Source: Candidatus Micrarchaeota archaeon (GTDB lineage Archaea > Micrarchaeota > Micrarchaeia > Anstonellales > Bilamarchaeaceae). From it: a DNA stretch of 32,600 nucleotides. Position numbers and translations under genes: made by a program. The stretch covers positions 4,068 through 36,667 of the forward strand of contig JAKANX010000001.1 in NCBI GenBank assembly GCA_021823425.1. The letters are read 5' to 3'. The notes under the pieces were generated by a model, which ran no database searches, was not told the DNA's origin, and saw nothing but the letters and a program-made list of their open reading frames with translations. Positions within the stretch are counted from its first letter, which is position 1. Each line of letters begins with the position of its first letter. Positions 6,856-22,308 of this stretch are shown here, in pieces.

Positions 6856-6885
6856 ATATCATGCTCTCAAGTGCGGAAGAGGCGG

Positions 6886-6940
6886 GTTCCCGTTTCGGGT
6901 TCGCGGTTTTGCCCAGAACGCCGGACCCTGGACACGGAAC
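6886..6940. repeat. heptamer-array palindromic element, copy A
   Basis: Plus strand: GTTCCC GTTTCGG GTTCGCG GTTTTGC (6886-6912). This directly abuts, on the minus strand, GTTCCGT GTCCAGG GTCCGGC GTTCTGG (6940-6913). It shares the 10-mer GTTTCGGGTT with copies B, C and D. Confidence 0.6.
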
Positions 6941-6957
6941 GGTCATGTGGTGATTTT

Positions 6958-12943: not shown

Positions 12944-12964
12944 GCTATATCTAACTGCAATTCC

Positions 12965-13022
12965 GTTTCCAGTTTCGGGTTTCCGGTTTTGGCCGCGGAA
13001 CCCGGAACGCGCAACGCAAAAC
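12965..13022. repeat. heptamer-array palindromic element, copy B, immediately upstream of tRNA-Val
   Basis: Plus strand: GTTTCCA GTTTCGG GTTTCCG GTTTTGG (12965-12992), then CC. Minus strand: GTTTTGC GTTGCGC GTTCCGG GTTCCGC (13022-12995). Confidence 0.7.
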
Positions 13023-13029
13023 GCCCATC

Positions 13030-13102
13030 GGGCCCGTAGTCGAATGGCTAAGACGCTACTCTCACACAGTAGAGATTCGCGGTTCAATCCCGCGCGGGCC
13101 CA
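13030..13102 (+). tRNA. tRNA-Val (anticodon CAC)
   Basis: Manual cloverleaf fold. Acceptor stem GGGCCCG/CGGGCCC, anticodon stem CTACT/AGTAG, loop CTCACAC (U33, CAC, A37), T arm CGCGG-TTCAATC-CCGCG, discriminator A. No CCA is encoded. Confidence 0.9.
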
Positions 13103-13120
13103 AGTATTCATAACCTGGCC

Positions 13121-13190
13121 GTTTCCGGTTTCCTGTTTCGGGTTTCGCAACTGAAAACGGTCTTGCTCAGGAAAACCGGAAACCACAAAC
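13121..13190. repeat. heptamer-array palindromic element, copy C, downstream of tRNA-Val
   Basis: Plus strand: GTTTCCG GTTTCCT GTTTCGG GTTTCGC (13121-13148). Minus strand: GTTTGTG GTTTCCG GTTTTCC (13190-13170), plus an isolated GTTTTCA (13158-13152). CCGTTTCCGGTTTCCTG is near-complementary to CAGGAAAACCGGAAACC. Confidence 0.65.
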
Positions 13191-13206
13191 TTTAACGGTG
13201 ATTACC

Positions 13207-14115
13207 ATGAACATTCTCGTAACCGGGGGCGCGGGCTTCATAGGCTCGAACCTCACGGCAGCGCTTCTAAAAGAGGGCCACCACGTCACGGTGCTGGACA
13301 ACTTCCACTCCGGAAGCGAGCAGAACCTGGAAACCCTGAACGTGAAACTCGTACGGGGCGGCGCAGGCGACTTGGACCATTTGGACGTGGGAAAAGTGGA
13401 AGCCATTTTCCACCAAGGCGTCTATTCCTCCTCGCCCATGTACAAGGAGAACCCCCGCCTCGTCGCAAAGGCCATCGACGACTTCATAGTGCTGCTGGAA
13501 TTCGCGAAAAAGCACAGCGCGCCGGTCGTGTTCGCGTCCACCTCGTCCATGTACAACGGCATCGCCCCCCCGCACAAGGAGGACATAATCCCGAAAGTGA
13601 CCGACTTCTATACTGAAGCGAGGATTGAGATGGAGCGCATGGCCGAGCTCTACCACAAGCTTTACGGCATGAAGATAATCGGGCTGCGCTATTTCTCCGT
13701 CTACGGCCCGCACGAGAGGAGCAAGGGCAAGTACGCCAACCTCGTTTCCCAGTTCATCTGGTCCATGGTGAAAGGGGAGGCGCCCGTGATTTACGGCGAC
13801 GGCTCCCAGACGCGGGACTTCACCTACGTTGACGACATAGTGCGCGCGAACATGATGGCCATGAAATCCAATGTGAAATACGGGATGTTCAACGCGGGCA
13901 CCGGAAGGACATACACCCTGAACCAGCTCGTGGAAATGCTGAACAGGCAGATGGGCACCTCCATTAAGCCGCAGTACATAGAGAACAAGATAAAGAACTA
14001 CGTGCAGGCGACGCTCGCGGATACGTCAAAGGCAAAGGCAGAAATCGGCTTTGAGGCCCAAATCACTCTTGAGCAGGGCATAGGCAAGCTCGTGGCCCTT
14101 GAGAAAGGGAAATGA
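13207..14115 (+). CDS. NAD-dependent epimerase/dehydratase family protein (extended SDR) with an atypical YxxxR at the catalytic position
   Basis: VTGGAGFIGSNL and ASTSSMYNG are present, but the expected YxxxK reads YTEAR. ATG 13207 is preferred over the track start GTG 13198. Confidence 0.8.
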   Translation: MNILVTGGAGFIGSNLTAALLKEGHHVTVLDNFHSGSEQNLETLNVKLVRGGAGDLDHLDVGKVEAIFHQGVYSSSPMYKENPRLVAKAIDDFIVLLEFAKKHSAPVVFASTSSMYNGIAPPHKEDIIPKVTDFYTEARIEMERMAELYHKLYGMKIIGLRYFSVYGPHERSKGKYANLVSQFIWSMVKGEAPVIYGDGSQTRDFTYVDDIVRANMMAMKSNVKYGMFNAGTGRTYTLNQLVEMLNRQMGTSIKPQYIENKIKNYVQATLADTSKAKAEIGFEAQITLEQGIGKLVALEKGK

Positions 14116-20464: not shown

Positions 20465-20479
20465 GTTTTATTAAATTTC
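20465..20479 (+). promoter_or_regulatory. TATA box for gatE
   Basis: GTTTTATTAAATTTC lies about 27-40 bp upstream of ATG 20506. Confidence 0.4.
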
Positions 20480-20505
20480 CCAGCGATGTTGAATCGGTTC
20501 TTTTC

Positions 20506-22308
20506 ATGAAACTCGGCCTTGAAATTCATCAAAGATTGAACACGCACAAGCTCTTCTGCGAGTGCCCCAGCCCAGGCAGTTTCGACTTGCCAGTTTCGGG
20601 TTCCGAAACTGGGAACGTGAAACCCAAAACGGTTTTGCGCATGCTCCACCCGGTTTACAGCGAGATGGGCGAGGTGGACAAGGCCGCGCTGGAGGCCGCG
20701 GGCCGCGAGCAGTCCTTTGAATACCTCTTCTACCCGAATTGCGGCTGCCTCGTGGAATTGGACGAGGAGCCCCCGCACCCAATGAACTCCGAAGCGCTGA
20801 ACATAGGGCTGGAAATAGCGGCCCAGCTCAATTCCAAGCCCGTGGACGAAGTCCACACGATGCGCAAAATCGTGATAGACGGAAGCAACACCTCCGGATT
20901 CCAGCGCACCGCTGTTATTTCATTAGGCGGGAAGGTGGAAAGCTCCAAGGGCGACGTGCGCATAACCACCGTGGCGATAGAGGAAGAGAGCGCGGGAATA
21001 GTGGAAAAGAAGGACGGGCGGTCCGTGTATTCCCTTGACCGCCTCGGAATCCCGCTCGTTGAAATAGGCACGGAGCCGGACATAAAGGACCCCGAGCAGC
21101 TCCGCGAAGTTGCGGAAAAACTCGGCCTTATTTTGCGCGCGACCGGAAAGGTGATGCGCGGCCTCGGAACGATAAGGCAGGACGTGAACGTGAGCATAGA
21201 AGGGGGCGCGCGGGTTGAAATAAAGGGCGCGCAGGACCTCAGGACCATTTCCCTGCTCGCCCAGAACGAGGCCAAGAGGCAGGAGAACCTCCTTTCCATC
21301 ATAACCGAGCTGAAAAAGCGCTTCAACAACAAGTTCCATGTGGAAGCGCAAATCGTGGACCTGAGCCCTGCGTTCGTGGGAACGCAGGCAAAGATGGTAA
21401 AAACCGGGCTGGAATCGGGCCAGCGCATCCTCGGAATGAAATTGGCCCATCACGCGGGCCTTCTCGGAAAGGAAATAAATCCGGCAAGGCGCTACGGAAC
21501 CGAGCTCTCGGATTATGCGAAAACCGCCGGAGTGAAGGGGATAATACACAGCGACGAAGCGCTCGAGAAGTATGGAATCACTCCTGAGGAGGCGCAGGAA
21601 GTTCGCGCCCTTCTCGGCGTAAAGGAAGGCGACGCGTTCGCGATGGTCATCGCAAAGGAGAGCGTCGCGCGCAAGGCGTTGGAAAAAGCGCTTGAACGCG
21701 CCAACATGGATTTTGTTCCCAAGGAAACGAGGAAGGCGAACGAGGACGGCACCTCTTCATACATGCGCCCTCTTCCCGGAAAGGCGCGCCTGTACCCGGA
21801 AACCGACATCCCGCCGGTAAAGATAACGCAGGCACTCCTCGCAACCGTTGCCGAGGGCGCGTCCGAAAGCCTTGACCAGAAGCGCGAAAACCTTTCCAAA
21901 ATCCTCAACAAGGACATGGCCGAGCGCATACTTCGCTCAAAGCACCTCAAGCTATTCGAAAAGTTCGTGCAGGAAGGCGTGGAGCCCATGCTCGCAGCCT
22001 CCACGCTGGAGGACACGTTAACCATGCTCAGGCGCGAAAACGTCGCCGTGGACGAGCAGGCCCTCGTCTCCCTGTTCGCCTCCTACAAGAAAGGCGAATT
22101 CGTGAAATCCGCAATACCGGACCTACTTCGGGGGATGGCTGCGGGAAAAACCGTGGAGCAGGCCCTTGACGAAAAACAGCTCAGGAAAATAACCGGAGCT
22201 GAGCTCAAGAGAATAATCGAGGAGAACAAGGGCAACTTCGGCCAGATAATGGCCAAATACAGGCTCAGGGTGGACGCGGCAGAAGTCCAAGTTCTCCTGA
22301 AAAAGTGA
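20506..22308 (+). CDS. gatE: Glu-tRNA(Gln) amidotransferase subunit E
   Basis: MKLGLEIHQRLNT..KLFCEC, SEMGEVDKAAL and CLVELDEEPPHPMN form the typical archaeal GatE N-terminus. Length is 600 aa with a GatB/YqeY-like C-terminal tail. Confidence 0.9.
   Translation: MKLGLEIHQRLNTHKLFCECPSPGSFDLPVSGSETGNVKPKTVLRMLHPVYSEMGEVDKAALEAAGREQSFEYLFYPNCGCLVELDEEPPHPMNSEALNIGLEIAAQLNSKPVDEVHTMRKIVIDGSNTSGFQRTAVISLGGKVESSKGDVRITTVAIEEESAGIVEKKDGRSVYSLDRLGIPLVEIGTEPDIKDPEQLREVAEKLGLILRATGKVMRGLGTIRQDVNVSIEGGARVEIKGAQDLRTISLLAQNEAKRQENLLSIITELKKRFNNKFHVEAQIVDLSPAFVGTQAKMVKTGLESGQRILGMKLAHHAGLLGKEINPARRYGTELSDYAKTAGVKGIIHSDEALEKYGITPEEAQEVRALLGVKEGDAFAMVIAKESVARKALEKALERANMDFVPKETRKANEDGTSSYMRPLPGKARLYPETDIPPVKITQALLATVAEGASESLDQKRENLSKILNKDMAERILRSKHLKLFEKFVQEGVEPMLAASTLEDTLTMLRRENVAVDEQALVSLFASYKKGEFVKSAIPDLLRGMAAGKTVEQALDEKQLRKITGAELKRIIEENKGNFGQIMAKYRLRVDAAEVQVLLKK
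20579..20638. repeat. heptamer-array palindromic element, copy D, in frame inside gatE
   Basis: Plus strand: GTTTCGA CTTGCCA GTTTCGG GTTCCGA. Minus strand: GTTTTGG GTTTCAC GTTCCCA GTTTCGG. Contains a perfect 10-bp stem, CCAGTTTCGG-GTT-CCGAAACTGG (20590-20612). The 13-mer CCAGTTTCGGGTT is identical to copy B (12969-12981). Confidence 0.6.

Follow-up and report, generated by a model that had tools for sequence, protein, structure and literature searches.

What are the four short, inverted heptamer arrays that lie scattered through a compact stretch of the genome of an uncultivated micrarchaeon (DPANN archaea)? The stretch analyzed here (the window) comprises 32,600 nucleotides of Candidatus Micrarchaeota archaeon (GenBank assembly GCA_021823425.1, contig JAKANX010000001.1, positions 4,068 to 36,667 of the forward strand). 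A preliminary description, made from the letters alone, had reported in it a new short repeat family at four loci, two of which bracket a gene for tRNA-Val; on rereading, the coordinates and sequences that it gave for the four elements were all correct. Each element is 55–70 nt long and consists of a plus-strand arm of four GTTYCSN heptads, followed by three or four such heptads on the minus strand. The explanation that we find best, and put forward tentatively, is that all four loci hold copies of one dispersed palindromic repeat, specific to this lineage, that resembles repetitive extragenic palindromic (REP) sequences and miniature inverted-repeat transposable elements (MITEs) and falls within the prokaryotic heptamer-repeat class. 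The elements are as follows:

6886..6940, plus strand: element A; plus arm 6886-6912 (units GTTCCC, GTTTCGG, GTTCGCG, GTTTTGC), minus arm 6940-6913 (units GTTCCGT, GTCCAGG, GTCCGGC, GTTCTGG); the arms abut.
12965..13022, plus strand: element B; plus arm 12965-12992, minus arm 13022-12995, with a centre of 2 nt; its neighbors are the stop codon of an epimerase gene (12943) on one side and tRNA-Val on the other.
13121..13190, plus strand: element C; plus arm 13121-13148, centre 13149-13169 (21 nt), minus arm 13190-13170; it follows the 3′ end of the tRNA and precedes a Shine-Dalgarno sequence (GGTGA, 13197-13201) and an epimerase ATG (13207).
20572..20637, plus strand: element D; a 66-nt in-frame segment of the GatE gene, with plus arm 20579-20606 and minus arm 20630-20603.

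The kinship of the four loci is seen most directly in the 10-mer GTTTCGGGTT, which had been noted in all four elements on the plus strand. It turned out to occur exactly four times in the window, always on that strand (at 6892, 12972, 13135 and 20593), against 0.06 occurrences expected by dinucleotide shuffles, and none of 100 shuffles reached four. Alignment of the copies gives a consensus some 60 nt long, CGGTTTCCAGTTTCGGGTTTCCGGTTTTG...CCCGGAACCCGGAACCCGCAACCCAAAACGG, at a mean column identity of 61%; GTTTCGGGTTYSSGGTTTTG is common to A and B, and GTTTCGGGTTYCGMAACTGR is common to C and D. The element ends read CCGTTT.. and ..AAACGG, every copy closing with ..RAACGG. Copies at different loci have not only a core but also a unit order in common.

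The internal structure of the elements is periodic. All eight arms of A–D run in a 7-nt register, as expected of tandem heptamers (at least three head-to-tail 7-nt units), and a scan for arrays of three heptad units returned seven in the window, where mononucleotide shuffles gave 0.1. Tandem Repeats Finder reported a period of 7 at 12961-12989 (left half of B), 12994-13017 (right half of B) and 13121-13146 (left half of C), with unit matches of only 82–84%. Over 31 units, the first three positions are almost constant (G1 in 30, T2 in 31 and T3 in 29), although this apparent conservation is inflated because the unit register was itself defined on GTT. Position 4 is mainly T (19 units) or C (10), position 5 is C in 21 units, position 6 is mainly G (19) or C (10), and position 7 is nearly free.

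The palindrome is less well kept than the period. In B, C and D, the two arms are 76–83% complementary over 18–21 nt, which corresponds to the terminal inverted repeats of MITEs, and the core of D forms a perfect 10-bp hairpin (20590-20612). No inverted repeat of at least 10 nt (seed 6) was found in A, the most degenerate of the four copies, and its fold z-score is only -0.2. Taken in isolation, the element RNAs fold modestly better than shuffles (z from -0.2 to -2.5). These modest values, together with the lack of an inverted repeat in A, indicate that the periodic GTT(Y)(C) core has been preserved better than the hairpin.

Evidence for recent gain comes from orthologous sites. The window carries archaeal markers (GatE, GatD, NurA and KaiC-like/DUF7504 proteins), and the best named relatives of its GatE and TldD belong to metagenome-assembled genomes (MAGs) of Candidatus Micrarchaeota or Micrarchaeia. 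Three assemblies of the organism, including ENA ERZ27237563 and GCA_027346415.1, are identical in DNA or in GatE protein. The genome is compact, with most spacers shorter than 60 nt, and A, B and C take up three of the few longer ones. For comparison we used syntenic relatives from GCA_902386315.1, GCA_037440825.1, GCA_041694885.1 and several Logan/ENA contigs (compared loci are cited below by our L handles). A check for presence or absence at orthologous sites had been proposed in the preliminary description, and its outcome is uniform: all four elements are absent from the sister genome and from the other relatives, the kind of presence/absence pattern by which MITEs are recognized. It follows that A–D were gained after the split from the sister genome.

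At the individual sites, the difference is mostly one of spacer length. A lies in a 102-nt spacer (6856-6957) between the stop codon of a KaiC-like gene (6855) and a small conserved ORF, the real start of which is GTG 6958, preceded by a Shine-Dalgarno sequence (GGTGA, 6949-6953). Protein alignment and DNA comparison place the same junction at 4–9 nt, without A, in four relatives (L397, L398, L399 and L400). B is absent from L398 and L004, where the spacer between the epimerase gene and the tRNA is about 31–34 nt, compared with 86 nt in the window. C is absent from L397, where the tRNA and the following epimerase gene are 27 nt apart, compared with 104 nt in the window; at the C site, L004 has only a three-unit array on one strand. 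Overall, about 85 kb of the relatives' DNA yielded a single clear array (in L004, with score 15) plus five weak matches of score 14, against the seven arrays in 32.6 kb of the window. In their placement, A, B and C correspond to REPs, being short imperfect palindromes that are intergenic and lie after genes or within operons, while D is intragenic.

Element D resides in a protein-coding gene:

20506..22308, plus strand: ORF of GatE (Glu-tRNA(Gln) amidotransferase subunit E), the host of D; 600 aa, compared with 589-590 aa in its closest relatives.

The true start of GatE is ATG 20506 (MKLGLEIHQRLNTHKLFCEC...), and D makes up codons 23-44, PGSFDLPVSGSETGNVKPKTVL. The interval from anchor TGCCCCAGC to anchor CGCATGCTC measures 66 nt in the window, compared with a conserved 33 nt in four relatives (L128, L127, L004 and L006); this native segment encodes [TE]EGKGEP[KR]R[VL]. 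A further 13 close GatE proteins are also without the extra 11 residues. In a neighbor-joining (NJ) tree, the GatE of the window is nested with two proteins (P0002 and P0003), both of which are without D. The net effect of D is thus a gain of 11 codons in a loop that follows a CxC motif, with the reading frame kept and the GatE domains intact, as is known for Rickettsia palindromic elements (RPEs) within protein genes.

Taken together, the elements occupy an operon junction, a tRNA leader, a tRNA–mRNA spacer and, in frame, a tolerant loop of GatE. We regard them as a palindromic variant of a known but unexplained class of heptamer repeats, new as a family in this organism. Among the three origins that had been suggested for them, a REP- or MITE-like hairpin family has the most support, owing to the absence of the elements at orthologous sites and the in-frame insertion of D. 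Copies would arise by DNA-level copying from existing copies, either through transposition by a factor encoded elsewhere or through recombination or gene conversion between copies, and heptad slippage would later alter the number of units. They would persist only where a hairpin or an insert is harmless in the compact genome. Effects on transcripts, such as hairpins and the pairing that B and C may undergo around the tRNA, would then be by-products rather than the reason for the elements' existence, and any effect of the hairpin on RNA or DNA is probably incidental.

Several observations weigh against this dispersed-repeat explanation. Among the 30 ORFs of the 32.6-kb window there is no transposase, REP-associated tyrosine transposase (RAYT), Y1_Tnp or other mobility gene, so that the RAYT- or IS200/IS605-like gene for which the preliminary description had suggested a search is missing from this stretch. 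Neither the window nor the relatives compared yielded an autonomous insertion sequence (IS) with the same ends. Comparison of the flanks of the four copies with the empty sites gave no consistent target-site duplication, A alone having a possible TCATG pair. The boundaries are not clean either: A brings about 45 nt of extra non-palindromic sequence and an altered start codon, and D replaces 33 nt and so is no simple insertion. The likeness from copy to copy is only about 60–70%. In addition, the GTT spaced every 7 nt is conserved better than the complementarity between arms, and for this reason a periodic binding motif or motif-driven genesis fits as well as descent from a master copy. Finally, a GatE clade represented by P0010 and P0016 has a GAAAC-type heptad array at the same GatE loop as D. 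That the window and P0010/P0016 inherited their SETxN..PKT loop from a common ancestor was considered and rejected, as the NJ tree puts them in different clades; the two arrays are therefore independent, which could mean that such arrays are generated in situ instead of being inserted.

Two alternatives were considered, neither of which we think likely. According to one, argued by analogy, the elements would be arrays of binding sites for a DNA- (or RNA-) binding protein that reads GTTYC every 7 nt, the inverted arrays binding a symmetric oligomer. Such a protein would account for the gradient of conservation within the unit (GTT nearly invariant, positions 4–5 semi-conserved, positions 6–7 and arm complementarity decaying), for the poor fold of A, which alone is barely better than shuffles, for the roughly sixfold excess of the inverted GTTTC core over two composition-matched cores in viral contigs, and for the fact that positions 6–7 are genome-specific while GTTTC is kept. 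However, part of the GTT signal comes from the GTT-based register, the sites do not look like promoters (A, C and D are within transcription units or an ORF), they are missing from close relatives that have the same genes, and no candidate binding protein was found, a conserved cross-domain reader being purely hypothetical. According to the other, replication slippage and template switching would have built each array in place, followed by decay, and the likeness among loci would reflect mutational or compositional bias. The sheer abundance of tandem heptamers, the most common intergenic periodic repeat in prokaryotes and one without an explained function (PMC6344855, PMC4679880), speaks for such local genesis, as do the many viral arrays built on a control core (see below), partial one-strand arrays in relatives (L004 1475-1502, L398 5464-5484 and L403), the independent heptad arrays at the GatE loop in another clade, and the lack of both target-site duplication and, within the window, a transposase. 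Yet slippage is hard to reconcile with adjacent units being no more alike than distant ones and with Tandem Repeats Finder matches as low as those given above, and bias is hard to reconcile with the same 10-mer and unit order at different loci. The possibility that the left arm of D is an inverted copy of native GatE sequence was tested and rejected, either half of D matching the native 33 nt of the four relatives no better than shuffles (p 0.2–0.9). Moreover, at the sites of A and C the relatives possess hardly any spacer DNA from which an array could have been seeded.

Two further alternatives concern RNA, and the first of them centres on the tRNA gene between B and C:

13030..13102, plus strand: tRNA-Val(CAC), identified by ARAGORN and Rfam; native, since relatives have it at this locus too.

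B ends 7 nt before this gene and C starts 18 nt after it, as had been described. By analogy with archaeal rRNA processing stems, B as the leader and C as the trailer might form a long helix that encloses pre-tRNA-Val. The predicted fold of the RNA 12958-13196 indeed has nested long-range pairing around the tRNA, of B-left with C-right and of B-right with C-left; its minimum free energy (MFE) is -86 kcal/mol (z -3.4), and none of 200 shuffles was as good. Within it, GGTTTCCGGTTTT of B and AAAACCGGAAACC of C pair without a mismatch over 13 bp. In L397, the 27-nt spacer leaves no room for a promoter, and the tRNA and the downstream epimerase gene are therefore probably co-transcribed. Nevertheless, a role in tRNA processing seems improbable. 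Such pairing is the automatic outcome of two palindromic copies on either side of a gene, any two members of the family being able to pair likewise, and in stability the local hairpins of B and C (about -53 kcal/mol) plus an estimated -25 to -30 for the tRNA are broadly similar to the long-range structure. The leader–trailer helix is not conserved, since this tRNA is processed in relatives that have neither B nor C, and it leaves A and D, which have no tRNA nearby, without explanation. Thus, what remains of the earlier suggestion of leader and trailer structures is that B–C pairing is computationally possible, and in the modeled fold it is possibly a side-effect of the elements and not their purpose. 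Still less probable, in our estimate, is that the elements are archaeal transcription terminators or attenuators in which T-rich heptads, whichever strand they are on, act as oligo-T termination signals after genes. A, B and C do each follow a plus-strand gene or tRNA, L004 has a T-rich array directly 3′ of the tRNA, and the bacterial counterparts discussed below begin 5–25 nt past stop codons. But archaeal intrinsic termination normally needs a run of five or more T, and the longest T run in any element is four; the bacterial versions have no trailing T tract; D is inside an essential ORF; and, in relatives, the genes on either side of A and of C are tightly coupled or co-transcribed.

How do the elements relate to known families? 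An annotated origin can be set aside as far as Rfam is concerned: only the tRNA reaches the gathering threshold, and the best matches on the elements have E >5. A string search for the array sequences found none in a prokaryotic context in the papers covered. The family is in this sense new for the organism, as had been claimed, but its architecture, in which the preliminary description had recognized no known feature, is not unique. Tandem heptamers are well documented (PMC6344855, PMC4679880), and inverted arrays were found in large numbers elsewhere (see below). The prokaryotic long heptanucleotide repeats (LSSR) resemble the arrays of the window in having head-to-tail 7-nt units, in being mostly intergenic and near gene ends or start codons, and in being widespread; examples are the repeats of Mrazek 2007 (as cited in PMC4679880), those of the SPADE survey (PMC6344855), the cyanobacterial STRR and the TAACTGA repeats of Beggiatoaceae. 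Unlike these, the arrays of the window are short (3–4 units), degenerate, and arranged as inverted pairs that form a palindrome, and they constitute a family with a common unit order, shown to have been gained at four orthologous sites. A family in Geobacter metallireducens, with 49 copies of four heptanucleotide repeats between and within genes (PMC2700814), is similar in being multi-copy, with about four heptads at both inter- and intragenic positions. It differs in its unit (GGGACCG) and bacterial host, and it was described as direct repeats only, with no comparison of filled and empty sites.

The resemblance to mobile palindromes is also partial. With REPs, bacterial interspersed mosaic elements (BIMEs) and REPINs, the elements have in common that they are short imperfect palindromes, dispersed just after genes and inside operons, and species-specific in sequence. 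REP stems, however, are not periodic heptads, and neither the GTAG-type 5′ motif of REPs nor a cognate RAYT is seen in the window. To our knowledge, there are no reports of REPs in archaea. MITEs and RPEs are likewise small, non-autonomous palindromic insertions that are present or absent between relatives and may sit in frame in protein genes, as D does. In contrast to them, the copies in the window are much shorter (55–70 nt) and less alike, their arms are internally periodic, they lack a consistent target-site duplication, and a related autonomous IS was found neither in the window nor in the relatives compared.

A parallel for the periodic arms is offered by the omega repressor of pSM19035/inc18 plasmids, a ribbon-helix-helix protein that reads contiguous heptads, in direct and inverted orientation, with the unit WATCACW in promoter operators. 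The elements likewise consist of contiguous 7-bp units in both orientations. Unlike omega operators, for which the cognate protein is known, A, C and D are within transcription units or an ORF, and only B may overlap a promoter region, that of the tRNA. Likeness of GTTTCAC units to parS half-sites was also considered; it was rejected, as GTTTCGG and GTTTCCG predominate among the units of the window and a parS site is not an array of half-sites.

Should the complete genome turn out to contain multiple copies of the family, this would be the first REP/MITE-like repeat to be described for Micrarchaeota and a tractable entry point to the origin and spread of the 7-nt period; if not, the four loci would be a local curiosity. 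In either case, the window is an unusually clean natural experiment, with a compact genome, syntenic sisters and four gains that can be dated, at sites under different constraints (a coupled operon junction, a tRNA leader, a tRNA–mRNA spacer and a protein loop).

Similar arrays are common beyond the Micrarchaeota. Tandem arrays of three GTTTCNN units were found in at least 120 stretches of viral contigs, but so were arrays of three GTCTTNN units, a control core. GTTTC was accordingly rejected as a special core for tandem arrays, and only the inverted form is enriched: viral contigs contain 25 inverted arrays with the GTTTC core, compared with four each for GTCTT and GCTTT, which are matched in composition. 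Inverted GTTTCSN arrays occur in at least 120 stretches of the genome collection, and inverted GTTTCNN arrays in at least 120 stretches of metagenomes. The genome matches listed are mostly from Acidobacteriota, the others coming from Bacteroidota, Verrucomicrobiota, Binatia, Planctomycetota, Chloroflexota, Nitrospira and one locus of Micrarchaeota. Among these matches, the bacterial inverted arrays start 5–25 nt past stop codons, and their flanking genes are co-directional in 50 cases, convergent in 22 and divergent in 10, a distribution like that of REPs. Each genome has its own dialect at unit positions 6–7, with GTTTC kept.

One heptad palindrome looks like a dispersed element: about 130 nt long and with its GAAAC arm first, it is present on three contigs of metagenome Ga0315286 (L408, L430 and L460) and on two contigs from other samples (L439 and L461). 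It is about 90% identical over the five contigs, and the flanks cannot be aligned, which is the signature of a dispersed multi-copy element. A more far-reaching proposal, which we consider quite unlikely, would unite the GTTTCNN heptad palindromes of DPANN archaea, of many bacterial phyla and of phages in a single class of dispersed repeats that crosses domains; a hypothetical conserved machinery, either a transposase specific for hairpins or heptads or else a binding protein, would propagate or read them. Were this true, the copies in Micrarchaeota would be a currently active example, colonizing operon junctions, tRNA flanks and the frame of an essential gene, and they would provide a mechanistic handle on the prokaryotic preference for period 7.

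Two apparent regularities of these arrays did not withstand comparison. A universal polarity, with the GTTTC arm first, was suggested by viral contigs (12 vs 0), but at least 120 arrays of the opposite architecture are present in metagenomes. Of elements A–D, three have the better fold on the plus (sense) strand; selection on sense-strand RNA through G–U pairs was nonetheless rejected, as 40 co-directional bacterial cases are unbiased (21 vs 19, Wilcoxon p 0.8).

Viral contigs provided two observations of their own. IMGVR_UViG_3300044816_000209 (36.5 kb; L028, L137 and L140) has at least six inverted palindromes of GTTTCTG, GTTTAAG and GTTTCAC units, which have their arms in common, while their GC-rich centres of about 20 nt are all different. 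In viral tandem GTTTCNN arrays (L007-L126), which often abut a start codon and frequently adjoin arrays of other heptamers, the sense strand of the neighboring gene reads GAAAC in 70 cases against 18. This strand bias may be ordinary purine loading, as the control core behaves similarly just upstream of start codons (9 vs 1).

Heptad arrays were also noted at other places in the window and in Micrarchaeota. Just past C, inside the epimerase ORF, the minus strand of 13328-13348 has a weak three-unit array (GTTTCAC GTTCAGG GTTTCCA), which may be due to chance or be a decayed fragment. A heptad palindrome of the window's family is present in the Micrarchaeota MAG Sv319 (JACCLI010000064.1; L328:6925-6990), where it forms the last ~20 codons of a 315-aa minus-strand ORF and encodes ..LPVSGS.., a peptide that also occurs in the GatE insert; it may represent a repeat-derived C-terminal extension. 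At the GatE loop itself, two other Micrarchaeota have GAAAC-type arrays of period 7 (L401:10055-10130, in the GatE of GCA_040757035.1, and L403:4633-4660), and the loop in L401 additionally has two 12-nt tandem duplications (ECPS-ECPS and ETEN-ETEN). Repeat-driven changes in length recur at the GatE loop. Upstream of the same gene, some 15–30 nt before its start, TTTTATTAAATTTCCC (window 20476-20491) is identical in three genomes (the window, L128 and L004) within a spacer that otherwise varies, and probably serves GatE as an archaeal BRE/TATA promoter.

The orthologous tRNA-Val genes of two relatives (L397:6755-6860 and L398:14880-14937) contain, in the region of the D-loop, an insert some 31 nt long (GGGCTCGTAGTCGAA[AGCGTTTTTATCCCGGTAAAAATGCCGACAAC]GGTTAAGAC...), which is absent from the window and from L004. 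ARAGORN misses the gene in both L397 and L398, and the insert is probably a non-canonical archaeal intron.

Finally, the window contains a low-GC island at 1441-2772 (0.44–0.49, compared with 0.56 for the window), located between the gene for the beta subunit of pyruvate:ferredoxin oxidoreductase (PFOR) and an HTH_3 gene. It comprises an unannotated 178-aa ORF and a D12-class N6-adenine DNA methyltransferase on the opposite strand, and relatives carry other genes at this position. The island is probably a horizontally acquired methylase or the remnant of a restriction-modification system.

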